64,000 nucleotides of DNA from Chloroflexota bacterium. GTDB lineage: Bacteria > Chloroflexota > UBA11872 > VXOZ01. Under the pieces are notes generated by a model. The model made no database searches, was not told the DNA's origin, and was given only the letters and a program-made list of their open reading frames with translations. Below are positions 40,738-56,268 of this stretch, piece by piece. Made by a program: the position numbers and the translations under genes. Where the stretch lies: the NCBI GenBank assembly GCA_965207135.1, contig OZ242272.1:2437336-2501335 (forward strand), in the 5' to 3' direction. Within the stretch, counting starts at the first letter, position 1. The number at the start of each line of letters is the position of its first letter.

Positions 40738-42600
40738 ATGCGATGTATTATCCGGTTGCGTCATATACCTAAGGCTCTCGCCCTAATGGTAGTGCTACTC
40801 GTTCTGGCGACGGTGCCAGCGAACGCACAAGAGGCTACCACATTTTCATCGGCAGTAGTCACAAAGAACCACTATGATTCCACGCTGAGGCACAACATTC
40901 CCAACCTCCAAATCACCCGGAATGGTGTAACGCACAGCGTCAACTTCCTTGACCACTACAACTCAACCGGCGGCATTACCCGCTGGGGATTCCCAACATC
41001 TGAGGTAATTGAAGAAGAAACCGGCAACCTTGCACAGTACTATCAACGAGGCGTCGTGGACTGGCACTGGCGCCCCGACCTTGGGCGCTACGTGATGGAA
41101 CGCCGCTTGGCTTGGGACTTTTTTGGCGGCGGCGCCGGCGGCAGTGTCGACCAAGGCGTGGAGCCAGGACGCACCAACCCCAATCCCGGAGTAGTGCTAG
41201 GACCATGGGGACACAAGGTGTCTGACTTTTCAATTGAAGGGATTTTCACCGGATTCAGAGGATTCTATGAGTCGCTCGGCGGCGTGCAGGCCTTCGGTTT
41301 CCCAAAGACCGACGCTCGCATTGATAGAAATGCGCCCGGCACGCTCCATATTCAGACGGCAACCCCGGGCTTCATCAGGCAGTATTTCCAAGCTGCCGTG
41401 CTTGAATACCACCAAGGAGATCCCGAGCCGGTAAAGTTGCGTCTCCTCGGCGACGACCTTCGCAATCAGAATTATCCGAATAATAGCTGGCAAACGTATC
41501 CGGCTTTCAATGCCGCAGTTGCGCTTACGCCGGGTCAGCTATACGGTATTCCGCGCGTGGTCCGGGGCCACACCGCCAGCGGGCAGCCCGTAGCGAGTGT
41601 TCCCCAGCCGGTGCAGCCGACTCCCGCGCCGCAGCCGGCGCAACCGACTCCCGCGCCGACCAGTCCTACACCAACGCCGATACCGGCGTCGTGGAGTGGC
41701 AGCGTGTGGTTCGGCGCCTATGGTGGCGGTGTTATCAACTACGATGGAGAAATCTGGAGGACATATCGCAGCTTCCAAAGTCCGCTGCCGCATGATAGAG
41801 TGAACGACATTTTCGTTGCGGATGATGACTCAAAGTGGTTTGCGACGGAGGACGGTCTCGCACAGCTCCGCGGCACGACGTGGACCAATTTCGATACGGG
41901 CACGGACGGCTTTCCTGGCAATGACGTAGCGTCGATCCATGTGGTTGGCAACCTAGTTTGGATCGGCACGAACGGGCATGGCGCCGGCTTCTATGACATT
42001 TCTAAGAACGACTGGACGAGCCTCCGCACAGATAACTCAGATATTCCCAGCAATTCAGTGCGGGATGTACTAATCATCAACGAAGGACGAAATCGCGTCT
42101 GGCTCGCCACCGCGAACGGCGCTGCACTGTACGACAATGGGCAGTGGCAGCTATTCAATGCTTCAGTGATAGCGTCGAATGATGTCCTAAGTCTCGCCCT
42201 TGACACTTCGGGTAATGTTTGGGTAGGCACGAATGGCGACGGACTCAGCGCGTTCAATGGGACGACGTGGACAGAATACCACACAGGAAACTCCGGCCTT
42301 ACGAATGACACCGTGCGCAGCATCTCAGTTGCACCAGATGGTCGGCACATCTGGTTTGCGACCAGTGGCGGCATAGGTGTCTACGATAACTCCAATGGGA
42401 CGTGGGCTAGCTACAATATCTTCAATTCCGGGCTCGCGCACAATGAGGTCTTCGACATCGCGTTCGACTCAAGCAACCGCGTGTGGATAGCCACCGCCGA
42501 CGGTGCCTCGCTCTTAGAAGACGGAATAATGCAAACATTCCAGACCGGCGGTGATTCAGGCATTACGTTCGATGCCTTACGCGCGGTAGACGTAGAGTAG
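40738..42600 (+). CDS. Secreted protein with N-terminal LGFP-type repeats, Pro/Thr linker, and C-terminal two-component-regulator-propeller-like beta-propeller repeats
   Basis: After a signal peptide come repeats such as GGITRWGFPTSEVIEE.TGNLAQYYQRGVVDWH and LGGVQAFGFPKTDARI...RQYFQAAVLEYH, then a PQPVQPTPAPQPAQPTPAPTSPTPTPIPA linker, then repeated WFAT/WIGT/VWVGT...G propeller blades. Confidence 0.6.
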   Translation: MRCIIRLRHIPKALALMVVLLVLATVPANAQEATTFSSAVVTKNHYDSTLRHNIPNLQITRNGVTHSVNFLDHYNSTGGITRWGFPTSEVIEEETGNLAQYYQRGVVDWHWRPDLGRYVMERRLAWDFFGGGAGGSVDQGVEPGRTNPNPGVVLGPWGHKVSDFSIEGIFTGFRGFYESLGGVQAFGFPKTDARIDRNAPGTLHIQTATPGFIRQYFQAAVLEYHQGDPEPVKLRLLGDDLRNQNYPNNSWQTYPAFNAAVALTPGQLYGIPRVVRGHTASGQPVASVPQPVQPTPAPQPAQPTPAPTSPTPTPIPASWSGSVWFGAYGGGVINYDGEIWRTYRSFQSPLPHDRVNDIFVADDDSKWFATEDGLAQLRGTTWTNFDTGTDGFPGNDVASIHVVGNLVWIGTNGHGAGFYDISKNDWTSLRTDNSDIPSNSVRDVLIINEGRNRVWLATANGAALYDNGQWQLFNASVIASNDVLSLALDTSGNVWVGTNGDGLSAFNGTTWTEYHTGNSGLTNDTVRSISVAPDGRHIWFATSGGIGVYDNSNGTWASYNIFNSGLAHNEVFDIAFDSSNRVWIATADGASLLEDGIMQTFQTGGDSGITFDALRAVDVE

Positions 42601-42836: not shown

Positions 42837-43505
42837 ATGCGCGATCCCATCAGACATCTCAAGGCCCTCGCATTTGCGTTGACGGTTTTCCTAATCACGT
42901 CATTCGCCGGCGCCCAGTTTCGCCCCCAGCTCTTTCCCTTCATGCCGTATGTGTGGCCGTATATTGCGGGCGGCTCCTTGACTTATACCGGCACGGACCT
43001 CGCTATCGCCCCCGCTCCGTCATTTGCGCTCCAGAACCAACGAGGAGAGCAAGTTTCCCTGGACGACCTGCGCGGGAAATTGGTCGTCCTCACGTTTCTC
43101 GACCCGCTGTGCACCGATGATTGCCCGCTCATAGTGCAGGAATTGGCCGCTGCCTATGCGCAACTGGGCGCGCTTGCCCAGGAGGTTGTGATTGTCGCCA
43201 TTAATGTCAACCCCGATGCGCAGACCCAATTCGAAATGGAGTCCTTCTTTCGGACCCAGGGCCTGGACGAGAATTCAGCCTGGCATTTCGTAGGAGGAGA
43301 GTGGGCGGAGGTGGCTGAAATCGTTGCGGCGTACCATGTGTCAGCGGGCGACCCCAAACCCAGCAAGCCGGGCGAGGTGGCGCATCAAGATGTGGTATTT
43401 CTCATCGACCGGCAAGGCAACTACCGCGTGCTCATCACGCATCCGACGCCGGTGGGGGTCTCTCTGCAGGACGTCATACTGCAGCGGCTGCGGGAGCTAG
43501 GGTAG
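42837..43505 (+). CDS. SCO1/SenC family copper chaperone (thioredoxin fold, CxxxC)
   Basis: It has the GKLVVLTFLDPLCTDDCPL motif. Confidence 0.75.
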   Translation: MRDPIRHLKALAFALTVFLITSFAGAQFRPQLFPFMPYVWPYIAGGSLTYTGTDLAIAPAPSFALQNQRGEQVSLDDLRGKLVVLTFLDPLCTDDCPLIVQELAAAYAQLGALAQEVVIVAINVNPDAQTQFEMESFFRTQGLDENSAWHFVGGEWAEVAEIVAAYHVSAGDPKPSKPGEVAHQDVVFLIDRQGNYRVLITHPTPVGVSLQDVILQRLRELG

Positions 43506-44474
43506 CTTTTCAATACGCTCCACCGCGAATTGCGGCTGCGGCTCGTCTTCCTTGCCGCAGGAGCTGGGGAAGCGGAGCATCTGCTCCGGAGCTTCTCTGA
43601 CGGTTACTTCATATGAACCATTGTACGCTGAATCATCTGAGGAGAATGTGAGTCGCACGGTAACCGCGTCGTCTCTACTTCCGGCAATGAACTCGCTCTG
43701 TACCCGGTACGTCGTCCACCGCCAGTCTTCGGCCAGTAGCACCGCGTGTTCGGCTGCCTGCTCCAATGGTGAAAGCCTGCTCCAGCCGCGATACTGCCGC
43801 TCCAAATCCGAGAAAGAGCCCGCGCGTGCAATCAGATTGGGCAGATCATCTTGCGTGATATAGGCATAATAGCGGCCTTCAGGTAAGTCGAGCAGCGTTG
43901 GCGCCATACGGTGCCCGCCCAGGTGGCTGCAACGCCAGACACGCAACGCGTCCGGCTGGGAGCGCACGTAGACCTCCCGCAGTTCACGATAGATTTCAAA
44001 ACCGAAGGTGGCGCAGCAGCGGTCTCGGCTGCCGTGGTTGCATACCAATAGCTCGCGCATGTGATCGGTCGCCTGCCGGTAATCCGCAAAGCGCTGCATG
44101 TCATTTGGCCTGTAGAGCAGCGCCTCTACCACTGCCGGCAGGGATTCCGCTGGCACGAGGTACTCTTGTTTCTCGTAAGTCGGCGACTGTTCGTTGGTGT
44201 GCGTGAAATAGAATACCCGGGTAAATCCTGCGCGCGCATACTCGGCGTCCGGCATAAGACCCGTAACGCGCGGCGCGATGCCGTCCTCTACCGCTCGCTC
44301 AAGTACCGACCGAACTTCAGCGGGAAACGTGGAAGACTCAGTCACTTCGCGGTCCCACGGTAACGCGCACTCCATGATCAAGTGCTCAAGGTGCGTCGGC
44401 GCAGTTCCCACGGGATGAAAGCCTGCGGCCCGCGCCACACGCGAACAGAAGGCCGTCGCTGCGTTGCTCGCCAC
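43497..44474 (-). CDS. Sucrase/ferredoxin-like family protein
   Basis: The VCNHGSRDRCCATFG motif matches the family CTHG.RD.RC signature. It overlaps the SCO stop by 9 nt in a convergent arrangement. Confidence 0.5.
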   Translation of the reverse strand: MASNAATAFCSRVARAAGFHPVGTAPTHLEHLIMECALPWDREVTESSTFPAEVRSVLERAVEDGIAPRVTGLMPDAEYARAGFTRVFYFTHTNEQSPTYEKQEYLVPAESLPAVVEALLYRPNDMQRFADYRQATDHMRELLVCNHGSRDRCCATFGFEIYRELREVYVRSQPDALRVWRCSHLGGHRMAPTLLDLPEGRYYAYITQDDLPNLIARAGSFSDLERQYRGWSRLSPLEQAAEHAVLLAEDWRWTTYRVQSEFIAGSRDDAVTVRLTFSSDDSAYNGSYEVTVREAPEQMLRFPSSCGKEDEPQPQFAVERIEKLP

Positions 44475-44729: not shown

Positions 44730-45236
44730 GTGAGCACGTTAGACCTTCTCCGTGTCGCACTGCGCTGGATGCACCTGACTGCAGCCGTAGTGTGGATAGG
44801 CGGCACGCTCTTCTACGTCATGGCGATACAACCGTCAGTAGACACTGCGGAGAAGGCGGCTGGTTGGCGGAGAATTCGCCAGGGGGTCGAGCAACAGTTT
44901 CATGAAATCGTGCAGGTATGCATTTGGACGTTCTTCATATCCGGCGCCATCCTGACGTACGATCGTTTGACGTCCGTGAACCCGGGCTTGGACTACATAG
45001 CCGCCCTGGTGGTTAAGGTACTATTAGTACTGTGGATGGTATACATTTCCGGCGGATTGCGGCGGTCGGGAGCCCGCAAGCCAATTGGCTCAGCGAACAA
45101 GAAGCCATCCTCCGCCGGGAGCGTATTTCAGCGGCTGCGTTCGCCGGTGCTTCAAATCGCCATAATCGGCGTCATAGTATTGTTGCTGGCCGATCTCCTT
45201 AAGGTCCTGGCGGAGAACGCACTGCGTCCCCTTTAA
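44730..45236 (+). CDS. CopD-like small membrane protein (putative)
   Basis: It has a GTG start and 4 TM helices. The first helix carries H..AAVVWIGG, as in CopD-family proteins. Confidence 0.35.
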   Translation: MSTLDLLRVALRWMHLTAAVVWIGGTLFYVMAIQPSVDTAEKAAGWRRIRQGVEQQFHEIVQVCIWTFFISGAILTYDRLTSVNPGLDYIAALVVKVLLVLWMVYISGGLRRSGARKPIGSANKKPSSAGSVFQRLRSPVLQIAIIGVIVLLLADLLKVLAENALRPL

Positions 45237-45257: not shown

Positions 45258-45722
45258 ATGGCAAATGAGGTTGTAGTTGCATGCGCAGGCGGGAATAGCC
45301 GTCGCACGTTCGACGTTAAGATCATCGTAGGCGGTATCGTCATCCTCTTGGCGGTGGCCTATTTGGTCGTGGCTGCGCTGCCGTCGGGGACTGCGTACTA
45401 TCTGACGGTGAGTGAATTGGCTGATATGGGCGAACGCGCGCAAACCCAGCAAACACGCGTCTCCGGCAACGTGGTACCAGGCACCATCGTGCGCAGTGCC
45501 GATTCCCAGGACATTCGCTTTCAAATTGAGGATGAGAGCGGCCGTCTAACTGTGGTGTTCAGCGATGTCGTCCCCGACATCTTTGGCGATCACACGCAGG
45601 TCGTTGTGGAAGGCACGCTCGGTGAGGATGGCATCTACAGCGCCGAAATCCTCTTAGCCAAATGCCCGTCGCGCTTCGAAGAAGCCGCCCCAACCGGTAG
45701 TGAATACACGAAACCCGGTTAG
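45258..45722 (+). CDS. ccmE: Cytochrome c-type biogenesis haem chaperone CcmE, variant with Cys in place of the haem-binding His
   Basis: It has an N-terminal anchor and an OB-fold core (GNVVPGTIVRS...IRFQIEDESGRLTVVFSDVVPDIFGDHTQVVVEGTL). Its C-terminal LLAKCPSRFEE aligns to E. coli VLAKHDENYTP. Confidence 0.65.
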   Translation: MANEVVVACAGGNSRRTFDVKIIVGGIVILLAVAYLVVAALPSGTAYYLTVSELADMGERAQTQQTRVSGNVVPGTIVRSADSQDIRFQIEDESGRLTVVFSDVVPDIFGDHTQVVVEGTLGEDGIYSAEILLAKCPSRFEEAAPTGSEYTKPG

Positions 45723-45975: not shown

Positions 45976-46299
45976 ATGATCATTGCGACGACGGCACAAA
46001 TTCCGGGTAAGCGCGTGACCGCCGTAAAGGGCCTTGTGCAGGGCAACACAATCCGTTCTCGGCACGTGGGACGGGACATCATGGCGGCATTCCGGAATAT
46101 TGTCGGCGGAGAAATCGCTGAGTACACGCGGCTCATGACAGAATCTCGCAAGCAGGCCGCAGACCGCATGGTGGCTGAGGCAGAAGGGTTGGACGCAAAC
46201 GCGGTGATAGGCGTCCGGTTCGTTACTTCGATGGTGATGTCGGGGGCATCGGAGTTGCTGGCCTACGGCACGGCGGTGGTCATTGAGGATGACGTCTGA
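45976..46299 (+). CDS. YbjQ/UPF0145 family protein
   Basis: The 107-aa ORF has the characteristic length and Gly-rich pattern (NAVIGVRFVTSMVMSGASELLAYGTAVVIE). Confidence 0.65.
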   Translation: MIIATTAQIPGKRVTAVKGLVQGNTIRSRHVGRDIMAAFRNIVGGEIAEYTRLMTESRKQAADRMVAEAEGLDANAVIGVRFVTSMVMSGASELLAYGTAVVIEDDV

Positions 46300-46569: not shown

Positions 46570-48585
46570 ATGACGGCTAACCTCGGCACAGCCTTACTCT
46601 TCATTGCCTTTTTGGCAGCCCTTTACGGCGCGGTTGCGTCTGTGCTGGGTGCACGACTGCGGGTGCCGGAGTTGGTTGTGAGCGCACGCAACGCCGTAAT
46701 TGCCGTTGCCGCCCTCGTGGCGCTGGCCGCGCTCACGCTCATGTACGCCTTCGTAACGCATGACTTCAGCCTGAAGTACGTTGTCGCCCAAACGACCCGT
46801 TCTCAGCCGTGGCCGTACCTTTTCAGCGGCTTCTACGGCGGTCAGGCGGGCTCCTTGCTCTACTGGTCGCTCACGCTGGCGTTGCTCTCAACGGTAGTTG
46901 TGCTGGTTCATTTTCGCTCGGACCGGCAGCTCATTCCCTATGTCATTGCCGTCCTCCTGACCATCGAATCGTTCTTTCTCGTCGTGCTGAACTTCATCTC
47001 GTCGCCATTCGAGACGGTGTTCCCCGTGCCGCCCGATGGACGCGGTCTCAACCCGCTGCTGCAAGATCCCGGCATGCTGATACACCCGCCAATGTTGCTC
47101 GCCGGGTACATGAGCGTTTCCATTCCGTTTGCCTTCGGCATAGCCGCGTTAGTTACGGGCCAGGTGAATAACCGCTGGCTCCAGGCGACGCGCCATTGGG
47201 CGCTGCTGGCCTGGCTCTTTCTTTCGCTGGGCAATCTGCTGGGCGCCTGGTGGGCCTACCACGTCCTCGGCTGGGGCGGTTACTGGGGCTGGGACCCGGT
47301 GGAGAATGTCGCGATCTTGCCCTGGTTCGCCATGACTGCCTACGTGCACTCGGTGTTGGTGCAAGAGCGTCGCGGCATGCTCAAAGTTTGGAACATGATC
47401 CTAATCATCGTGGCCTTCAACTTGGCTGTTTTCGGAACATTTGTGGTGCGGAGCGGTATTCTGGCTTCCGTTCACTCCTTTGCCGTATCCGAAATTGGGC
47501 CGTACTTCTTTGGGTTCCTGGCCGTCAGCCTGATCGTCTCACTCACCCTGCTCATGCTGCGCTTGCCCCAACTGCGCGACGAGCATAACTTCGACTCCAT
47601 GCTGTCCCGGGAGGCAACTTTTCTCTTCAACAACCTACTCTTGGTGGCGGTCATTTGCGTCACTTTCCTCGGCGTGATCTTTCCGCTGCTCTCGGACGCC
47701 ATCCAAGGACGGCAAATCAACGTCGGTCCTCCTTTCTACCAGCAGGTCAATGGGCCGCTGTTGCTTGCCCTGGTCGCACTCATGGGCTTTGGCATGCTGG
47801 TTCCCTGGCGGCGGGGCGCAGCCCGGGCCCTCTTTCGCGGACTACGCGTCACAGTGCTTGGCACGGCCGTGATTACTATCATCGCTATTGTGCTTGGCGC
47901 GCGCTCGCCCTGGACGATTCTCAGCATCGCTGCCTGTTCATTTGCGTTAGTAGTGGCCCTCAGGGAATTTCACCGCACGGCCATTGCGCTCATGCGGGCG
48001 CAACAGACGCCGTATCCCGCCGCATTGCTCGCGGTCTTTCGCTACAATCGCCGCCGCTACGGCGGGTATCTCGTCCACGTCGGGATCGCGATCATGGGCC
48101 TGGCCATCATTGGTTCCTCTTTCTTCCAGGCTGAGCGCTCCGTGAGCATGCGTCCCGGTCAGAGCGTGGCGGTCGGTCAATACACCGTGGCGTACCAAGG
48201 CCTCACCACGTGGAGCGAGCCGGGCAAGCAACGGACCATTGCCTCCCTGCTGGTACGCAATGCAAACCAGTCCTTTGAAGTAGCGCCGCAGAAGGTTGTC
48301 TATCAGAATTGGGAAGATCAGCCCATCAGCGAGGTCGTAATCAAGACGGTCTATCCGCAATTCGACGACGTGTACATTGTGATGGCGGCTTATGGCGAAG
48401 ACGGCACGGCGAGCTTTCACATTTTCGTGAACCCGCTGGTCGCGTTCCTCTGGCTCGGCGGCGCGCTCCTCGTGCTCGGAGGGCTAATCTCGTGGTGGCC
48501 GTCTCCAGCGACTTCGCCGACGACGGCGCCAGCGGCCGCTGGCCTACGCGCCAGGCGGCTGGGGCCGGACACCGTCTCGACTTAG
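46570..48585 (+). CDS. ccmF: Cytochrome c-type biogenesis protein CcmF (haem lyase subunit)
   Basis: The 671-aa polytopic membrane protein has a CcmF/NrfE-like N-terminus and Trp-rich WWD-type segments. Confidence 0.85.
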   Translation: MTANLGTALLFIAFLAALYGAVASVLGARLRVPELVVSARNAVIAVAALVALAALTLMYAFVTHDFSLKYVVAQTTRSQPWPYLFSGFYGGQAGSLLYWSLTLALLSTVVVLVHFRSDRQLIPYVIAVLLTIESFFLVVLNFISSPFETVFPVPPDGRGLNPLLQDPGMLIHPPMLLAGYMSVSIPFAFGIAALVTGQVNNRWLQATRHWALLAWLFLSLGNLLGAWWAYHVLGWGGYWGWDPVENVAILPWFAMTAYVHSVLVQERRGMLKVWNMILIIVAFNLAVFGTFVVRSGILASVHSFAVSEIGPYFFGFLAVSLIVSLTLLMLRLPQLRDEHNFDSMLSREATFLFNNLLLVAVICVTFLGVIFPLLSDAIQGRQINVGPPFYQQVNGPLLLALVALMGFGMLVPWRRGAARALFRGLRVTVLGTAVITIIAIVLGARSPWTILSIAACSFALVVALREFHRTAIALMRAQQTPYPAALLAVFRYNRRRYGGYLVHVGIAIMGLAIIGSSFFQAERSVSMRPGQSVAVGQYTVAYQGLTTWSEPGKQRTIASLLVRNANQSFEVAPQKVVYQNWEDQPISEVVIKTVYPQFDDVYIVMAAYGEDGTASFHIFVNPLVAFLWLGGALLVLGGLISWWPSPATSPTTAPAAAGLRARRLGPDTVST

Positions 48586-48596
48586 GGAGCCACCGG

Positions 48597-49199
48597 ATGG
48601 AAATCCCTGCCACTCAAGAGAAGCAGTTTGTCGAACAGCGGTCCGCTGTTGGCAACCAATCCTTCCGCATTGCAGCGGGTCTAGCTAAGGCGTACTCACT
48701 TTCCGCGACAGCCTTGGCGGCGCTCTTGCTGGCCGCGCTGCTCCTCCACACCGGGCTGACCGCGGCCTCAGCCGCCACCATCGACGAACAAACTGTGGAA
48801 ATTGCCAAACAGCTCAAGTGTCCGGTCTGCCAGAACGTGCCGGTCGCTTACTCCCAATCGCAACTTGCGGTAGAGATGCGCCAGGTGATTCGCGAAAAGG
48901 TGGCGCAAGGTGAGAGCGAGGACGCCATCATCCAGTACTTTGTAGACCGCTACGGCGAGGACGTCTTGCTGGAACCCCGGCGGGAAGGATTCGGTCTCTT
49001 GCTGTGGGTGACATCCGTCGGCGTGGTGGTGTTTGGCGCCGTCGTCGTTGCCATAGTGCTCTGGAACTGGAGCCAGGCCCGCCCGGTGTCAAGGCCCGTC
49101 GCTGCATCGCCGGCAGACTCCGACACGCCAGCGTCCAGCGAACTCGAGCAACTCTTTGAGGAAGAGTACGCGCGCTACAAGCGGGGCAAGCGGATATGA
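48597..49199 (+). CDS. ccmH: Cytochrome c-type biogenesis protein CcmH/CycL
   Basis: The ATG at 48597 follows a GGGAG RBS. It has the LKCPVCQN (LRCxxC) redox motif plus a C-terminal TM helix. The track ORF's 5' overlap with ccmF was rejected. Confidence 0.8.
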   Translation: MEIPATQEKQFVEQRSAVGNQSFRIAAGLAKAYSLSATALAALLLAALLLHTGLTAASAATIDEQTVEIAKQLKCPVCQNVPVAYSQSQLAVEMRQVIREKVAQGESEDAIIQYFVDRYGEDVLLEPRREGFGLLLWVTSVGVVVFGAVVVAIVLWNWSQARPVSRPVAASPADSDTPASSELEQLFEEEYARYKRGKRI

Positions 49200-50500
49200 G
49201 CATTGCAGTCTTTGGCAGCGTGATCGGTGCGGCCGCGTTGCTCTGGATTCTCTGGCCGCTCGTGCGGCGCAACGGTTTCTCCACGTCGTCCCGCGAAGAG
49301 AGCATCCGCGACGACCTTGCCGAACGCACGCTGTTGCTCTATCAAGAGCTCGAGGAAATAGACCTGGAGCACGAGCAAGGCGACCTCACCGCGGACGAAT
49401 ACGCGAGTTTGCGCGAGGCACAGAAGCAGCGTGTGCTTGCACTCCTCGAGTCCCGCCAGCGGGAATCAGAAGCGCTTAGCAGCACCGCCGCCAGCAGCGA
49501 TCCCGATGCTATGAGCGACGCGATTGAACGAGAAATCCTGCGTATTCGCGCGCGGCGCCGGGGACAGCAGGACATCTCTGACGGCTCGCAGCCTAATGAG
49601 CAAGCCCTGTCACCCCTGGGATCACGAAAACTGCGTTGGCTGTGGCTTGGTGTGCCCGCCGCCCTCGTGCTGCTTGCGTTTGGCGCCATCTTCCAACTCT
49701 ACCAGTCCTCCGCCCGTATCCTCACCGAGCAAACCCCCATCGTTCAGATTGACGTGTCGGAACTCGTGGGCTTTGCCTATGTCGGCCCCGACCACGTGCT
49801 GCTGGCAAGCGCGAGCGGCCTCCGGGAGAGCCGCGACGGCGGACGCACGTGGGTGGAAACCGCTCGGGACGTCGCGCCTGCCGCTATGGCAGTGTCGCCT
49901 GCAGGCGCTGGCTTTGTGTACGTTTTCACAGAGAATAGCGTGCATTCTACGTCAGACGCCGGACAGACCTGGCAGGAAGTGCAGGGCACGCTGCCGGGCA
50001 CGGACATCCTCGCTGCGGCAGTAGACCCATTCGCGCCGACCCAACTCTACGCGAGTTTTGCCGAGACCGGGCTGCACCGCTCGCGCGATGGCGGCGCCAC
50101 CTGGGAACCGGTGCCCACGCCTGATGACGAGACGATTGTGGCAATCCTGGTTGGCGACGTGCCGCCGCTGGTCTTTATTGCGCGGGAATCGGGTAGAGTG
50201 CAAGTGAGCAGCGACGAGGGTGAAACGTGGGCAGCCGCCAGCGGCGCCGTCACTATGGCGCTGCGCGGGCCGGTGCGCGCGCTGTCCGGCGCAGCGGACG
50301 GCAGCATGCTATTCGCGGCGTCCCATACCGGCCTGTACATGTCCACGTCGGCCGGGCAGACGTGGGTAGACCTCCCGTTGCGCAAGCCGCTGACCGCAGT
50401 TACAGTAGACCCAGCTACGCCTCGGACAGTACTGGCCGTCACGGAGTCAGGCGAAGTGTACCGCAGCACCGACGGCGGCATCGCTTGGAGAGACGAGTGA
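49196..50500 (+). CDS. Bitopic membrane protein with a CcmI-like N-terminal module (TM - WPLVRR - coiled G.L...EY..LR....R.L.LL - TM) fused to a periplasmic BNR/Asp-box beta-propeller
   Basis: There are six S/T-x-D-x-G-x-T/A-W Asp-box motifs (SRDGGRTW, SDAGQTW, SRDGGATW, SDEGETW, TSAGQTW, TDGGIAW). It overlaps the ccmH stop by 4 nt. Confidence 0.6.
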   Translation: MSIAVFGSVIGAAALLWILWPLVRRNGFSTSSREESIRDDLAERTLLLYQELEEIDLEHEQGDLTADEYASLREAQKQRVLALLESRQRESEALSSTAASSDPDAMSDAIEREILRIRARRRGQQDISDGSQPNEQALSPLGSRKLRWLWLGVPAALVLLAFGAIFQLYQSSARILTEQTPIVQIDVSELVGFAYVGPDHVLLASASGLRESRDGGRTWVETARDVAPAAMAVSPAGAGFVYVFTENSVHSTSDAGQTWQEVQGTLPGTDILAAAVDPFAPTQLYASFAETGLHRSRDGGATWEPVPTPDDETIVAILVGDVPPLVFIARESGRVQVSSDEGETWAAASGAVTMALRGPVRALSGAADGSMLFAASHTGLYMSTSAGQTWVDLPLRKPLTAVTVDPATPRTVLAVTESGEVYRSTDGGIAWRDE

Positions 50501-52032
50501 TGGCGCGAGCCGCGCATAGGAATTCTGCGAATCGCGTCGACGATACGTCGCTCCAGCCAAGGCGTCCTTCTCTCAACACACCAATTCCGCCACCCCCGTG
50601 TACACGAGACTCTGACATGGCATTCAATTCGTCATCCTCCCCTGGGAGGTCTTCTCTTGACCCAACAAATCCTTCGTTTCCCCAAGGGCGAGAAACTGCT
50701 GGCGCAAATAGTCCGTCATTCCCGCGCAAGCGGGAATCCATCCTTGCCGGCGCTGCCGCAGACTCAGAGTCCAACATCCTCTCGTCCCTGCCGCACTCCT
50801 TGTCTCTCATCCGCCGGGCAGCGTGCCTCTTTCTCGGCATGCTACTGTTTCTCTTCCACTTTGCCGCGGTCGCGGCGGCAGAGAACGGCGTCGTAACCGG
50901 TACGGTCATCAACGGCACTGAGGACGGCAGCGCGCCTGCGGACGTAGCAGTAACCCTCTACTACCTGCGTAACGGCGAGATTGTGGAGCAACGCACGCAG
51001 GTCACTGACGCTGCGGGCGTGTACCGCTTCACTGAGATTTCCACAGAGCCCACGCTGACATTCGTGGTTGTGGCTGCCTACGGGCAAGTGCCCTACAACT
51101 CCCCAGAGCTGCAGTTCGGGGAGAGTACGGAAATCCAGGCGCCGCCGCTCGCGGTGTACGAAGCCAGCCAGGATGCGAGTGTGGTGCGGGTGGTGACCGA
51201 TGTATTATTCGTCGCCCCGGGAGAAGAAGGGAGCGGCATGCTCGGCGTGATCGAGGTTGTGAGGCTCGCGAATGACAGCGATCGCACCTACCTCGCAACC
51301 GGCGTTGCCGGCGGCGGCGCGCCGATGAATGTGCTCCGTTTTGCACTTCCTGCCGACGCAGAGGACCTCACGATGCTCAGCGGTCTCAATTCGCAAAATG
51401 TGGTGCAGATCGATCGCGGCTTCGGCGTCTTCATGCCGCTGCTGCCAGGCGAACGCGAAGTAGCCTTCGGCTATCAGCTCCCGTACTCCGGCAGCACGCT
51501 GGAGCTCAACAAGCGCACGGTCTATCCCACCGATCATTTCGCCATTCTTGCCCTCGAAGAACATGCGCTGCAATTCAATTCAAGTCAACTTGAAGTGCAT
51601 GCCACGCCAATCGGCGACCGCCGCTACTTGGTGGGCGCCGCAAACTCTCTGACAGCGCGTGCGGACGTAAGCGTGCAAGTCGCAGGCTTGCCTGCGCCCT
51701 CCCTGCAAGTCCGGTTCGAGCGGCTCTTCGCTCGTGTCCGCGCTGCTCAAGCGACTTTCTTCATCCTACTGGGCATTGTTCTGGTCTTGCCCGTCCTCTA
51801 TGCCGTCTATCGCATGCGCGGCGGACTGCGGCGCAGAGTTGCGCGGACCTCCGCGTCCGCTGTCGCCGCGCCAGACGCGCAAGAAGCCCTGCTCCTCGAA
51901 ATAGCCCAACTTGATGATGACTTTGCCGCAGGCGGCTTGGCAGAAGACGAGTACCGGAAATTGCGCGCGGACAAGAAGCAACGCTTGCTTGAACTCTATG
52001 GCGAGCCGGGCAGCGAGGCAGACGATGGGTGA
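50500..52032 (+). CDS. Envelope protein with carboxypeptidase-regulatory-like beta-sandwich domain, C-terminal TM helix and cytoplasmic CcmI-like motif
   Basis: It has VVTGTVINGTEDGSAPADVAVTLYYLRNGEIVEQRTQVTDAAGVYRF and a C-terminal ...TM-RMRGGLRRR...LDDDFAAGGLAEDEYRKLRADKKQRLLEL. The start is uncertain among the ATG at 50500 (ATGA-coupled to the upstream gene), a TTG at 50800 giving a clean signal peptide MSLIRRAACLFLGMLLFLFHFAAVAAA, and an ATG at 50839. Confidence 0.45.
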   Translation: MARAAHRNSANRVDDTSLQPRRPSLNTPIPPPPCTRDSDMAFNSSSSPGRSSLDPTNPSFPQGRETAGANSPSFPRKRESILAGAAADSESNILSSLPHSLSLIRRAACLFLGMLLFLFHFAAVAAAENGVVTGTVINGTEDGSAPADVAVTLYYLRNGEIVEQRTQVTDAAGVYRFTEISTEPTLTFVVVAAYGQVPYNSPELQFGESTEIQAPPLAVYEASQDASVVRVVTDVLFVAPGEEGSGMLGVIEVVRLANDSDRTYLATGVAGGGAPMNVLRFALPADAEDLTMLSGLNSQNVVQIDRGFGVFMPLLPGEREVAFGYQLPYSGSTLELNKRTVYPTDHFAILALEEHALQFNSSQLEVHATPIGDRRYLVGAANSLTARADVSVQVAGLPAPSLQVRFERLFARVRAAQATFFILLGIVLVLPVLYAVYRMRGGLRRRVARTSASAVAAPDAQEALLLEIAQLDDDFAAGGLAEDEYRKLRADKKQRLLELYGEPGSEADDG

Positions 52033-52759
52033 TTCTGACGGTGCTGCAAGTCTTGCCGTGGAGGCCCTGGGGCTGGCCAAGAATTACGGTCTGCAAGTTG
52101 CGCTGGATCAAGTAAACCTCTCTCTGGGCGAGAAAGAGCGTTTGGCTGTCCTCGGCCCCAATGGTTCTGGTAAGACAACGTTGATTTCCGTCCTGAGCAC
52201 GGCCATGCGACCGTCGGCGGGCACGCTGCGCATCATGGGCTACGATAGTGCAGACGCCCCGAACGACGTGCGCCGGCACATCGGTGTCGTCGCGCATCGC
52301 ACCTACCTGTACGAAGAGCTATCGGCACGGGAGAATCTCGTTTTCTACGGCCGTCTCTTTGGCATTTCTGACCTTGCCGCGCGCGCAGATATGCTGCTAG
52401 ACCTTGTGGACATCTACGCGCGCCGCCACGATCAGGTAGGGAGCTTATCCCGCGGTATGCAACAGCGCGTGACTCTTGCGCGCGCCTTGATCCACGATCC
52501 CGCCGTGCTTCTGCTTGACGAACCGGACACGGGCTTGGATCAGGAACACCTCGATCTGCTTGCTTCTCTTGTCACCGGCAGCAAGATTCCACCGCGAGCC
52601 GTTATCCTCACCACGCACAATCTGGAGCGTGCGCTCGACCTCTGTCACCGGGTTGCGGTGCTCGCGCAAGGGAGGCTCGCGTACCAAGCCGAGAGCGCGT
52701 CCCTCGATCGCACGGCATTGCTTGACGCCTATCGCCGCCTGGCAGGAGCAGCCAAGTGA
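52025..52759 (+). CDS. ccmA: Haem exporter ATP-binding protein CcmA (ABC ATPase)
   Basis: It has the GPNGSGKTT Walker A, LSRGMQQRVTLARA signature and LLLDEP Walker B. The ATG at 52025 overlaps the upstream gene's end by 8 nt. Confidence 0.8.
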   Translation: MGDSDGAASLAVEALGLAKNYGLQVALDQVNLSLGEKERLAVLGPNGSGKTTLISVLSTAMRPSAGTLRIMGYDSADAPNDVRRHIGVVAHRTYLYEELSARENLVFYGRLFGISDLAARADMLLDLVDIYARRHDQVGSLSRGMQQRVTLARALIHDPAVLLLDEPDTGLDQEHLDLLASLVTGSKIPPRAVILTTHNLERALDLCHRVAVLAQGRLAYQAESASLDRTALLDAYRRLAGAAK

Positions 52760-53424
52760 ACCTTGCCGTACGACAGGTATTGGCGGTAGTGCAAAAAGAC
52801 CTCATGGTGGAGATGCGCGCGCGCGACCTGCTGAACGTGATGCTGACGTTTGCGGTGCTCTCGCTGATAATCTTCAACCTTGCCTTGGACCTGCGCGGGC
52901 CGACGGTTCACGAAGTGGGGCCGGGGTTGCTGTGGCTCACAATCGCCTTTGCCGCCATTCTGGGTATGGGGCGGACATTCGTGCGCGAGCATGACCGCGG
53001 CACACTTGACGGACTGTTGCTCGCGCCAATCGACCGGGGCACACTCTACATTGCGAAGCTGCTCGCCAACCTCATCTTCCTTTTCATCATGGAAGCAGTC
53101 GCCCTACCCATGTTCGCCTTGCTGTTCAATCTGCCGGTGCTCCAGCCGTCCGTGATTCTCATAACTGTGTGTGGCACGCTGGGCTTTGCCATTCTGGGCA
53201 CAACGTTCTCCGCCATGGCGGCGCACAGCCGCGCGCGTGAAGCGTTGCTGCCGCTCTTGCTCTTGCCCACGACCGTACCCATAATCATCGGCGCCGTACA
53301 GGCTACAAGCTATGCGATCAGCCGTACGGAAGGCGGCCCCCCCTGGCTGGGCCTGCTCATTGCCTTTGACGTGATATTCTTCACCCTCTCATACTTACTC
53401 TTTGCACACGCCGTTGAAGGATGA
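52756..53424 (+). CDS. ccmB: Haem exporter membrane protein CcmB
   Basis: The 222-aa, 6-TM protein shows the CcmB family pattern. It overlaps ccmA by 4 nt. Confidence 0.8.
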   Translation: MNLAVRQVLAVVQKDLMVEMRARDLLNVMLTFAVLSLIIFNLALDLRGPTVHEVGPGLLWLTIAFAAILGMGRTFVREHDRGTLDGLLLAPIDRGTLYIAKLLANLIFLFIMEAVALPMFALLFNLPVLQPSVILITVCGTLGFAILGTTFSAMAAHSRAREALLPLLLLPTTVPIIIGAVQATSYAISRTEGGPPWLGLLIAFDVIFFTLSYLLFAHAVEG

Positions 53425-53664
53425 GTTTATTCCCTTGATTGGCAGGGCACCGTTCGTGCTGCGCACTCTGGGCGCCCCTATATGTATAGTTAGCTGAACG
53501 GAACTGCGTATTAACTCTTACGTCCCGCGAAAGGAAGAGCCTGCGTCGTGAGCAAAGAGCCACCTGGTCTTCCGAACGCTATACTTTAATGCAGCCGGTG
53601 ATGACGTCCCCGCGAGCGCACGAGTTGGCGCGGATGGCGCTGGCTACGGTCACAATGCGATGCT

Positions 53665-54396
53665 ATGCACTTGCAGGAAAGGAAGCAAACGGCGGTGAGT
53701 AGTATTGATAGAGGCGCGCGGCGATGGGTAGATGACATTCTTGGCGTTGCCACGCTGGTCGGCATGGTGGCGGCACTCTGGCTTGTTTTTGTCTACACGC
53801 CCGTAGAGCTTGTGCAGGGCGCCGTGCAGAAGGTTTTCTACATCCACCTTGCCTCCATTTGGAACGCATACTTGAGTTTCTTCCTCGTCTTCGTGGCGAG
53901 CATCCTCTATCTGCGACGGCCGAGTGCGGCTACAGATCGGTTCGCGCGCGCTTGGGCGGAAATCGGCGTGATCTTCACAACCATCACACTCATCAGCGGC
54001 GCGATTTGGGGCAAGCCAACCTGGGGCACGTATTGGACGTGGGATCCCCGGCTTACCACCACACTCCTCCTCTGGCTCATCTACGTGGTCTACATCATGC
54101 TGCGCGGCTTCGTGGGCGATCCCGAGCGCGGGCGGCGCTACGCCGCCATCGTAGGCATCATCGGCTTCATCGACGTGCCCATCGTGCACATGTCCGTACG
54201 CTGGTGGCGCACGCTGCATCCCGACCCAATCGTAGCCAGACTAGAGGGTCCGGAATTGCCAATGAGCATGTGGTACACGGTGCTCTACTGCATCGTGGTG
54301 TTTACGCTTTTGGCAGTCTTCTTGGTGCGTCAGCGCCTGCAAATCGACGAGTTGCGGGAAAGCCTCCTCGCGCTACGTTTGTCCCCGAGACAATAA
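53665..54396 (+). CDS. ccmC: Haem exporter protein CcmC
   Basis: It has the WWD-domain signature WGKPTWGTYWTWDPRLTTTLLLWLIY and conserved His residues. Confidence 0.85.
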   Translation: MHLQERKQTAVSSIDRGARRWVDDILGVATLVGMVAALWLVFVYTPVELVQGAVQKVFYIHLASIWNAYLSFFLVFVASILYLRRPSAATDRFARAWAEIGVIFTTITLISGAIWGKPTWGTYWTWDPRLTTTLLLWLIYVVYIMLRGFVGDPERGRRYAAIVGIIGFIDVPIVHMSVRWWRTLHPDPIVARLEGPELPMSMWYTVLYCIVVFTLLAVFLVRQRLQIDELRESLLALRLSPRQ

Positions 54397-54413
54397 GGAA
54401 CAGGAACAGCTCT

Positions 54414-54593
54414 ATGGATACGCTACAAAACCTTGACTACCTTTTCGCCGCGTTTGCCATATTCTGGGTGGTGATCTTCGGCTACTTCTTTTACATCACC
54501 AGACAACTGGGTGAGCTGCGGCGTGAGGTGAAGGCACTTCACGAAGAACGCGCACGCGATGCATCGGACCCGGATGCACCGTCGGGATACTAG
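54414..54593 (+). CDS. ccmD: Haem exporter protein CcmD (small single-TM protein)
   Basis: The 59-aa protein is MDTLQNLDYLFAAFAIFWVVIFGYFFYITRQ... It has an AGGAA RBS and lies immediately after ccmC. Confidence 0.7.
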   Translation: MDTLQNLDYLFAAFAIFWVVIFGYFFYITRQLGELRREVKALHEERARDASDPDAPSGY

Positions 54594-54750: not shown

Positions 54751-56268
54751 ATGACGGAAGACGGGTCATGTACGACGGCACAGACAGAGAATCGAAAGAA
54801 TCAGACGAGTGAAGGTTCTGGAGGGTCCGCCGCCGTAACTACCCTTACGGAATCCGACGCGCGTGCGCGCAGTCTGGCGCTCAATGACCGCGTTCCCGCG
54901 AGCGGGTTGTTTGGCGAGGCGAGCCGGCCCCTTGTGGAAGGCTCCCGCGCCTCTTGGCGCATTGCGCCCGAGCCGTTCCTTATCACTCCCGAGAGCTACG
55001 CGCGTTTGCAGCAATTGGGAGACCGGCTGCTGGCCTTCTATAGCGCCGCAAACCGCCTTTACCGGCGCAGCGTGCGCGGCACAATTCCCTCGTTCTTTCA
55101 CGAGTATCTCGATCGGGGCAAGAGCGAGACCGTAGTCGATTACGGACGCATGAACCGCTTCCGGCGCGACCTGCCCGGCGTGATCCGTCCCGATCTCCTC
55201 CTGACGACCGACGGCGTGAAGGCCGCAGAATTAGATTCCGTACCCGGCGGTATCGGCCTCACCGGCAGCATGCAGCAGCACTACAGCAGCCTGGGTTTCA
55301 CCATGGCAGGCGGCAACAACGGCATGGCTGAAGGCTTTGCCGCCATGATTCGCAGCTACGCTGGGAATGAGGACCCCCAGCTTGCAATTGCGGTTTCAGA
55401 CGAGTCCGCCGACTACCGCCCGGAGATGCAATGGCTTTCCGATCAATTGCGGGAACTGGGCATGAGCAGTGCCTGCGCCAAGCCGGAAGACATTGTCATG
55501 CGCGACGACGGGCTTTATCTGGACGACCGGCCGATTGACACGCTCTATCGCTTCCTAGAGCTCTTCGATCTGAAGAATATCCCAAACTACGATCTGCTGC
55601 TCTACGCCGTGCGCAAGCAACTGGTCGTAATGACGCCGCCGCTCAAAGCATATCTTGAGGAAAAGTTGCTCTTCGGGCTCTTCCATCATCCGGTGTTGGC
55701 TGAATTCTGGGCACAGGAGATGGGGAAAGAGAACGTTGCCGCCCTGCAACGCGTGATTCCCCAGACCTGGATACTGGACCCACGGCCGTTGCCGCCCCAC
55801 GCGGTTGTCCCGGGTCTGGAAGTCGTAAAAAAACCCGTATCGGACTGGAAGCAACTCTTGGGGTTGGGTCAGTCAGAGCGGCGCTTGGTCATCAAGCCTT
55901 CCGGCTACTCTGCCACTGCCTGGGGCAGCCGGGGCGTCACCATCGGCCACGACCATCCAGAAGCGGAGTGGGATGAAGCCGTGCAGACGGCGCTTGACGC
56001 TTTCGAGACGACACCCCACGTCCTACAGAAATTCCACCACGGCAACCGCTACGGCACCCGGTATTACGACTTTGCGCAGGACTCTGTGCGCAAGATGAAC
56101 GGCCGCGTGCGGTTGAGTCCGTATTACTTTGTTGCGAATGACGAGACTACCCTCGCCGGTATTCTTGTCACAATCGTGCCGGCGGACAAGAAACTCATCC
56201 ACGGCATGGTCGACGCCGTGATGGTGCCGGCCGCTGTAAGCGAGAGCGGCGTAAACCTCGACCTTTAA
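54751..56268 (+). CDS. ATP-grasp-fold amidoligase (glutathionylspermidine-synthase / pre-ATP-grasp-like), specificity unknown
   Basis: The 505-aa protein has a large N-terminal domain followed by LVIKPSGYSATAWGSRGVTIG, which resembles the ATP-grasp K-P..G..G.GV phosphate-binding motif. Confidence 0.5.
   Translation: MTEDGSCTTAQTENRKNQTSEGSGGSAAVTTLTESDARARSLALNDRVPASGLFGEASRPLVEGSRASWRIAPEPFLITPESYARLQQLGDRLLAFYSAANRLYRRSVRGTIPSFFHEYLDRGKSETVVDYGRMNRFRRDLPGVIRPDLLLTTDGVKAAELDSVPGGIGLTGSMQQHYSSLGFTMAGGNNGMAEGFAAMIRSYAGNEDPQLAIAVSDESADYRPEMQWLSDQLRELGMSSACAKPEDIVMRDDGLYLDDRPIDTLYRFLELFDLKNIPNYDLLLYAVRKQLVVMTPPLKAYLEEKLLFGLFHHPVLAEFWAQEMGKENVAALQRVIPQTWILDPRPLPPHAVVPGLEVVKKPVSDWKQLLGLGQSERRLVIKPSGYSATAWGSRGVTIGHDHPEAEWDEAVQTALDAFETTPHVLQKFHHGNRYGTRYYDFAQDSVRKMNGRVRLSPYYFVANDETTLAGILVTIVPADKKLIHGMVDAVMVPAAVSESGVNLDL

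Follow-up and report, generated by a model that had tools for sequence, protein, structure and literature searches.

In a 64,000-nucleotide stretch of DNA from a Chloroflexota bacterium (contig OZ242272.1, positions 2,437,336–2,501,335; hereafter the window), the gene lying directly after ccmH in an operon for System I cytochrome c maturation (Ccm) encodes a 434-residue protein, the target of the present analysis, in which two dissimilar parts are joined. Its N-terminal module, composed of a first transmembrane helix (TM1), a cytoplasmic helical hairpin, and a second transmembrane helix (TM2), is by profile comparison homologous to domain 1 of CcmI, and its C-terminal part is a six-bladed BNR/Asp-box β-propeller that stands in the place of the tetratricopeptide repeats (TPR) of CcmI. 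A preliminary description of this DNA had proposed such a fusion inside the ccm operon, and the match to TIGR03142, the Pfam BNR match, the AlphaFold2 (AF2) model, and the overlap with ccmH bear it out. With a probability that we put at roughly 0.6, the target is a CcmI-type subunit of the Chloroflexota System I machine, combining docking by the module with the use of the propeller as a platform for apocytochrome or apo-CcmE; that it serves the Ccm heme-ligation machinery as a subunit or accessory appears highly likely.

Results

Reading frame and orthologs of the target gene

The open reading frame was present on the forward strand as described beforehand, and the DNA at 49196–49199 displays the reported ATGA coupling, in which the ATG of the target overlaps the stop codon of ccmH; ccmH itself starts from an ATG at 48597 with GGAG, resembling a ribosome-binding site, upstream (Table 1). 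About 30 full-length orthologs were obtained, with 65–97% identity. A genome scan with the ortholog alignment placed the gene in 16 species-level genomes, all Chloroflexota, the peptide patterns used being so clade-specific that only the close clade and four unrelated propellers were returned; all named sources of the propeller form are likewise Chloroflexota. An artefactual fusion of two genes was considered and rejected, because the reading frame is continuous in all orthologs.

The N-terminal membrane module is related to CcmI

Hydropathy analysis gave two transmembrane (TM) segments, at about residues 1–19 and 148–166, which coincide with helices in the AF2 model. Since basic residues precede TM2, the positive-inside rule predicts an N-out/C-out topology, with the C-terminal domain outside the cytoplasm. 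The layout of CcmI, namely two TM helices, a cytoplasmic loop of the TIGR03142 type between them, and a large extracytoplasmic domain after TM2, is thus reproduced in hydropathy and AF2 helices, together with the predicted topology. Residues W17, W20, P21, and L22 of TM1 are conserved in the ortholog alignment, and W150 of TM2 is invariant. In the AF2 model, the hairpin consists of helices 32–60 and 66–94 (predicted local distance difference test, pLDDT, 60–78), and its residues G62, L64, and Y69 are kept even in relatives of 30% identity.

The NCBIfam model TIGR03142 ('cytochro_ccmI') matches residues 10–93 of the target with an E-value of 2.6e-5, but its score of 24.5 bits falls short of the curated cutoff (29.3 bits); it also matches 18 of the 20 orthologs, the best at 2.1e-7. 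A phmmer search with residues 1–190 against 1.84 billion cluster representatives returned 73 matches at E ≤ 1e-3, falling into four groups. The propeller fusions make up at least six 50%-identity clusters (P0029, P0122, P0127, P0131, P0135, and P0140). Another group (P0143, P0160, P0187, and P0169) consists of proteins of 300–330 residues in which the same two-TM layout precedes TPR repeats; among these, P0143 matches the target module at 2.2e-5 and TPR_CcmH_CycH matches weakly; the JGI name of P0160 is 'cytochrome c-type biogenesis protein CcmH/NrfG', and that of P0250, a further TPR-bearing protein found among the 13 matches of a homolog search with the N-terminal alignment, is CcmI. Many proteins of 90–200 residues represent the module alone, some with zinc ribbons, and one protein, P0182, has the module near its C-terminus. 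Profile–profile alignment by hhalign related the module of the propeller form to that of the TPR form (probability 99.4%, E 2.7e-21) and to that of the short form (99.8%). The resemblance of the N-terminus to CcmI/CycH domain 1, perceived at the outset in TM1 and TM2, has therefore withstood profile comparison. A sequence search of the PDB with residues 1–190 gave no meaningful match and hence no solved homolog of the module; as of 2013, the periplasmic domain of CcmI likewise lacked a crystal structure, only the paralog NrfG having been solved (PMC3884852).

On the cytoplasmic side, many proteins with the module have a CxxC...CxxC zinc ribbon, which is absent from the window protein. The ribbon lies between the hairpin and TM2 in P0127 and P0135 and is C-terminal in P0124, P0130, and P0182, following the hairpin in the short forms. 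The ribbon may mark a site on the module for regulation or for an interaction in the cytoplasm.

The outer domain is a six-bladed BNR propeller

The C-terminal part (about residues 190–434) matches the Pfam families BNR (E 2e-11, 42.5 bits against a cutoff of 27), Sortilin-Vps10 (E 4e-16, 59.2 bits against 33), and PSII_BNR (E 8e-10, 38.8 bits against 27), the BNR/Asp-box models being PF02012 and PF15902. Neither a TPR family nor PF23914 (TPR_CcmH_CycH) matched the target in Pfam at E ≤ 1, and residues 185–434 form a BNR propeller, in keeping with the earlier suggestion that a propeller replaces the TPR. Because the TPR repeats that mark a canonical CcmI are missing from these matches, the target is not filed as one; the most fitting description is that of a CcmI membrane module with another kind of outer domain.

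The repeated S-x-D-x-G-x-T-W boxes of a BNR propeller, one per four-stranded blade in a closed ring, are all accounted for. Five strict S/T-x-D/N-x-G-x-x-W boxes begin at residues 212, 252, 296, 338, and 424, and a degenerate one (STSAGQTW) at residue 383; their spacing of 40–45 residues therefore indicates six blades. The initial count of 'at least six' boxes was thus slightly generous. The AF2 prediction that the preliminary description had called for, computed with a 20-sequence ortholog alignment as input, models about residues 185–434 as six four-stranded blades with a pLDDT of about 90. In a Foldseek search of the PDB, the most significant matches were Ycf48 with a D1 peptide (5ojp, the top match), DAIP, and GH74 enzymes, while the best geometric superposition was with the designed six-bladed Pizza6 (TMt 0.79, rmsd 3.2). 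The propeller, labelled 'Ycf48/sialidase-like' at the outset, matches PSII_BNR and Ycf48 in this way but has six blades instead of the seven of Ycf48.

The propeller columns that stay invariant in the distant fusions are the Asp-box S/D/G/W positions and a few P/L/Y, and these columns contain no catalytic or ligand signature. The invariance of structural Asp-box residues only favors a binding scaffold over an enzyme, and for want of a signature the substrate of the propeller is not readable from sequence. A thiol-redox role was rejected, since the target protein contains no cysteine.

Three forms of the protein occupy the slot after ccmH

The gene order leading to the target in the window is SCO1/SenC, a Suc_Fer-like gene on the opposite strand, a CopD-like gene, ccmE, ybjQ, ccmF, and ccmH, and the target is followed by a 300-nucleotide spacer, a conserved unannotated gene, ccmA, ccmB, ccmC, and a 59-codon ccmD-like gene. 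In the close clade (65–97% identity), full synteny was found in the two loci with gene calls that were examined (L001 and L002). Propeller forms only 29–35% identical to the target lie directly after ccmH in four further loci, in the orders ccmE-F-H-X-[443 aa]-A-B-..-C-D in L028, ccmE-F-H-X-AB-C-D-[398 aa]-Trx in L030, and Trx-[CopD-like]-ccmE-F-H-X-[379 aa]-A-B-C-D in L031 (X, propeller form; Trx, thioredoxin); in L026, ccmF is uncalled but present in a gap, as revealed by tblastn. Association with ccmF and ccmH, a hallmark of CcmI, was accordingly seen in all six of these loci, and the expected ccm linkage of relatives held, down to about 30% identity, at every locus examined, always directly after ccmH.

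Depending on the genome, the same slot is filled by the module only, by the module with TPR, or by the module with the propeller. The TPR form P0187 (L033) and the short form P0124 (L034, with the order ccmF-ccmH-[164 aa]-[308 aa]-ccmA-B-C-D) both overlap the ccmH stop by 4 nucleotides. Among the distant or variant loci checked, five (L026, L028, L031, L033, and L034) show a start–stop overlap with ccmH, and in L030 a gap of 10 nucleotides separates the two genes. Judged from these gene orders and alignments, the propeller-for-TPR arrangement after ccmH is conserved over deep divergence.

A beta-sandwich protein with a second copy of the module

The next gene of the operon encodes a protein whose conservation begins at a predicted signal peptide near 50800 (AVAAA-ENGVVTGTV, with cleavage between AAA and ENG). 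In the mature protein, an Ig/CarboxypepD_reg-like domain, modeled by AF2 at a pLDDT of about 90, is followed by additional beta-sandwich domains, by a TM helix and, at the C-terminus, by a cytoplasmic hairpin, ALLLEIAQLDDDFAAGGLAEDEYRKLRADKKQRLLEL. This C-terminal module matches TIGR03142 at E 0.021 and aligns with TM1 plus hairpin of the target in hhalign with a probability of 97.5% (E 7.4e-12). Homologs with the same C-terminal module, 27–37% identical (E 1e-22 to 1e-38), occur in L028, L030, L031, and L034. A Foldseek search with the AF2 model gave only generic pilin, ribophorin, and Ig-like matches, without a functional clue. The beta-sandwich protein is probably a partner of the target and a candidate new Ccm component. 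Because the two adjacent ccm proteins share a cytoplasmic-side module and differ in their outer beta-rich domains, we infer that the shared TM-plus-hairpin module serves for docking or for pairing.

In public annotation, the partner gene starts at TGATG (50498–50502), in overlap with the stop of the target. This start was rejected, as the first ~100 residues so obtained are the translation of a hypervariable repeat ('SFPRKRESI'-type) that is unconserved as protein among 14 related loci. The spacer thus freed contains, at 50719–50736 and once in the window, the hairpin element TTCCCGCGCAAGCGGGAA with an 8-bp stem and a GCAA loop, of which nine relatives have 1–3 exact copies at the same site and some have larger repeat arrays. 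The spacer has no Rfam match; an mRNA stabiliser, an element resembling repetitive extragenic palindromes, and a processing site are candidates for the hairpin.

Table 1 Features of the ccm operon and of the target gene in the window.
Feature	Position	Strand	Basis
Target gene, CcmI-like membrane module and six-bladed BNR/Asp-box propeller, 434 aa	49196–50500	+	Open reading frame; orthologs
TM1 (about residues 1–24), N-terminus predicted outside, followed by RR	49196–49267	+	Hydropathy; AF2 helix 2–24
Cytoplasmic helical hairpin (residues 32–94), CcmI-like motif LLLYQELEEIDLEHEQGDLTADEYASLREAQKQRVLALL, G62 at the turn	49289–49477	+	TIGR03142; AF2; hhalign
Variable cytoplasmic linker (residues 95–146), length-polymorphic	49478–49633	+	Alignments; AF2 pLDDT <50
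TM2 (about residues 147–169), basic residues before it	49634–49702	+	Hydropathy; AF2 helix 143–177
Six-bladed BNR/Asp-box β-propeller (residues 185–434), no cysteine	49748–50497	+	Pfam; AF2; Foldseek; box spacing
ccmH, 200 aa, CPVC motif	48597–49199	+	Pfam CcmH, E 7e-30; sequence
Hypervariable intergenic spacer with GC-rich hairpin	50501–50799	.	Comparison of related loci
Conserved partner gene, start approximate (TTG at 50800)	50800–52032	+	Start of similarity across 14 loci; distant homologs
SCO1/SenC-type protein (CxxxC)	42837–43505	+	Synteny kept in L001, L002
Suc_Fer-like (sucrase/ferredoxin-like) gene, convergent to SCO1/SenC	43497–44474	-	Synteny kept in L001, L002
CopD-like multi-TM protein, 168 aa, weak CopD/Urate_ox_N similarity, directly upstream of ccmE	44730–45236	+	
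ccmE, System I*-type cysteine variant (AKCPSRF)	45258–45722	+	Pfam CcmE; motif scan
YbjQ-family ('putative heavy-metal-binding') gene between ccmE and ccmF	45976–46299	+	Kept in L001, L002
ccmF, heme lyase	46570–48585	+	Pfam CcmF_C, Cytochrom_C_asm; TIGR00353
ccmA-ccmB-ccmC-ccmD-like stretch	52025–54593	+	
ccmA	52025–52759	+	Pfam; gene calls in near-identical locus L001
ccmB	52756–53424	+	Pfam; gene calls in L001
ccmC	about 53665–54396	+	Pfam; gene calls in L001
ccmD-like gene, 59 aa	54414–54593	+	Gene calls in L001

Other genes of the operon and its surroundings

The window CcmE has Cys for the heme-binding His and F for Y (AKCPSRF), as in seven related loci. The corresponding motif is CPSKF in L028, CPSRY in L031, and the His form KHDANF in L030, the Cys-type (System I*) CcmE being present in most loci examined. 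This type has been recorded in Chloroflexi, and the F-for-Y variant in four cases only, in a 2011 review (PMC3601427). Homologs of the CopD-like protein (34–38% identity) occupy the same place upstream of ccmE in the distant loci L028 and L031, and the gene may be another lineage-specific component of the ccm operon. Two further genes of the surroundings are kept in L001 and L002. One, upstream of the ccm cluster (40738–42600, +), encodes a secreted protein of 620 residues with a Pro/Thr-rich linker and a C-terminal domain faintly resembling Reg_prop (two-component regulator propeller); the other, after ccmD (54751–56268, +), encodes a protein of 505 residues with no Pfam match and is followed in L001 by a lysine-2,3-aminomutase-like radical SAM gene.

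Stand-alone relatives of the propeller

The closest relatives that lack the fusion, 30–38% identical and of about 290–340 residues, have a basic N-terminal tail, one TM helix, and the same propeller. In L021–L025 (P0056, P0053, and P0069), they lie in copper/heavy-metal islands with genes for HMA P-type ATPases, CDF exporters, multicopper oxidases, BlaI/BlaR-like pairs, SCO1, CcdA with thioredoxin, CtaG, and sortase. In L024 and L025, the stand-alone form has a sortase gene next to it, as has the fused form in L026 and L027. The best NCBIfam match of the target is NF045728 ('F510_1955 family glycosylhydrolase') with 106 bits, short of the cutoff of 175, and the best score among the distant fusions is 147.5 bits (P0122). 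The members of this family, from Bacillota, Actinomycetota, and Chloroflexota, are small anchored BNR propellers, similar in size to that of the target (about 250 residues); they differ in having a single TM or lipoprotein anchor instead of a CcmI module, and the three relatives examined sit beside metal-homeostasis genes and not in a ccm operon.

Discussion

The results described above place the target beside two known kinds of protein without merging it with either. In Rhodobacter capsulatus and Pseudomonas aeruginosa, the membrane domain of CcmI belongs to the CcmFHI complex, and its TPR domain is an apocytochrome chaperone (PMC3884852, PMC3601427). Like CcmI/CycH (in Escherichia coli the C-terminal half of CcmH, with NrfG as paralog), the target is encoded directly downstream of ccmH, translationally coupled to it, and shares the membrane layout; it differs in that a six-bladed propeller takes the place of the TPR array, in the sub-cutoff score of its N-terminus, and in coming with a beta-sandwich partner that bears a second copy of TM plus hairpin. 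To our knowledge, no subunit of the System I heme-ligation complex is less well understood than CcmI. As for the propeller, Ycf48/HCF136 is a peptide-binding protein without enzymatic activity that acts in the assembly of photosystem II, a membrane complex with cofactors. Its propeller, likewise of the BNR type, is seven-bladed, and the protein is soluble or a lipoprotein, whereas the target has six blades and a membrane module; the two are only 14–19% identical, the target reaches 40.8 bits on the equivalog NF010237 against a cutoff of 326, and its gene context is ccm and not photosystem II.

By analogy with these proteins, the membrane module would dock the target onto the CcmF/CcmH heme-ligation complex, as in R. 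capsulatus CcmI, and the extracytoplasmic propeller would take over from the TPR array as the platform to which proteins or peptides bind, capturing unfolded apocytochrome c or apo-CcmE and presenting it to CcmF/H; the propellers of Ycf48 and DAIP bind peptides in a comparable manner. The adjacent beta-sandwich protein would probably join the same complex through the shared TM-plus-hairpin module. Within this scheme, the binding of apocytochrome by the propeller is the part on which we are least willing to insist, its chance falling a little short of even. More tentative still is a wider proposal, in which the CcmI module would serve System I as a general adaptor for the docking of interchangeable outer domains. 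In some Chloroflexota, a two-protein device of propeller and beta-sandwich, each with its copy of the adaptor, would then have replaced the TPR chaperone, either handling apocytochromes or coupling heme ligation to another process of the envelope in a manner not known from any Ccm system studied.

Several observations weigh against a CcmI-type role with the propeller as substrate platform. Apocytochrome binding is argued by analogy, and the distant fusions share no conserved functional surface. In some genomes the slot is taken by the module-only form, so that the outer domain may be accessory, or the machine may do without it; CcmI, required in R. capsulatus, is dispensable in E. coli, where this applies to the CcmI-like domain (PMC3601427). 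The nearest stand-alone propellers are found, in the three neighborhoods concerned, in metal islands and not in ccm operons. No TPR-type CcmI was found in the window, the search having covered these 64 kb only. Finally, the TIGR03142 score lies below the cutoff; this, however, probably reflects the proteobacterial bias of the model and not a lack of homology, because the TPR-bearing relatives of the same operon slot score no better (20.8–22.6 bits) than the propeller forms.

That same score, together with a weak match of the target to the 'antisigma' model NF052375 and the tendency of TM segments and charged helices to inflate profile scores, might suggest that the N-terminal similarity is that of a generic TM plus coiled coil, the target then being an unrelated anchored propeller that lies in the ccm operon by chance, or an artefactual fusion. 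We give such an explanation very little credence and consider it largely refuted: the motif reaches past the TM helix and its G62, L64, and Y69 persist to 30% identity, the reciprocal matches are specifically proteins of the ccm slot, the reading frame is continuous in more than 30 orthologs and in six 50%-identity clusters, and the junction with ccmH is an overlap in five loci and a 10-nucleotide gap in L030. That the propeller is an active enzyme of the glycoside hydrolase or sialidase kind, directed at glycans of the envelope and only tethered near Ccm, is equally improbable, even though NF045728 is the best NCBIfam match and GH74 enzymes are found among both sequence and fold matches. The NF045728 score is far below the cutoff, and the family takes its name from an uncharacterised BNR lipoprotein of Anoxybacillus annotated by similarity only (PMC3948429). 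Moreover, GH74 enzymes form their cleft between two seven-bladed propellers, whereas the target has a single six-bladed domain of ~250 residues without insertions, and the sequence columns invariant across the fusions are the structural Asp-box residues and few others, not the catalytic residues of a GH74 cleft or the Arg triad and nucleophile of sialidases.

A stronger contender, which we nevertheless hold to be unlikely, keeps the target in the Ccm complex by way of its module and assigns to the propeller a task linked to metals or to assembly, for example, coupling to copper delivery or to respiratory complex assembly, or sensing of metal stress in the envelope, instead of apocytochrome handling. 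In its favor are the companions of the nearest stand-alone propellers (HMA P-type ATPases, CDF exporters, multicopper oxidases, CopY/BlaI–BlaR-like pairs, SCO1, CcdA with thioredoxin, and CtaG), the window operon, which starts with SCO1/SenC and the CopD-like gene and contains the YbjQ 'heavy-metal-binding' gene, the retention of the CopD-like gene upstream of ccmE in L028 and L031, and the fact that Ycf48, among the closest folds, is an assembly factor. However, the propeller has no conserved set of Cys, His, or Met ligands, cysteine being absent and H377 and M354 unconserved in the distant fusions; the link to metal islands comes from three neighborhoods only; and the TPR form, by occupying the same slot, speaks for a function equivalent to that of CcmI.

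In current annotation, proteins of the propeller form are either nameless or labelled 'hypothetical' or 'photosystem II stability/assembly factor-like', which is misleading. Our literature searches found no paper linking CcmI with a propeller or Ycf48 with cytochrome c maturation, or describing a CcmI of Chloroflexota. The finding flags, in the beta-sandwich partner, a second conserved and unannotated protein of the Chloroflexota ccm operon, and it supplies new and probably more tractable proteins for work on structure and binding, including a compact six-bladed propeller modeled at high confidence. A natural domain swap appears to have taken place, in which TPR, propeller, and no-outer-domain forms occupy one slot on a homologous membrane module. 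It separates two roles, docking to CcmF/H, presumably exerted by the membrane module, and substrate handling, presumably exerted by the replaceable outer domain, and the replacement of TPR by a propeller suggests that this part of the heme-attachment machine is interchangeable.

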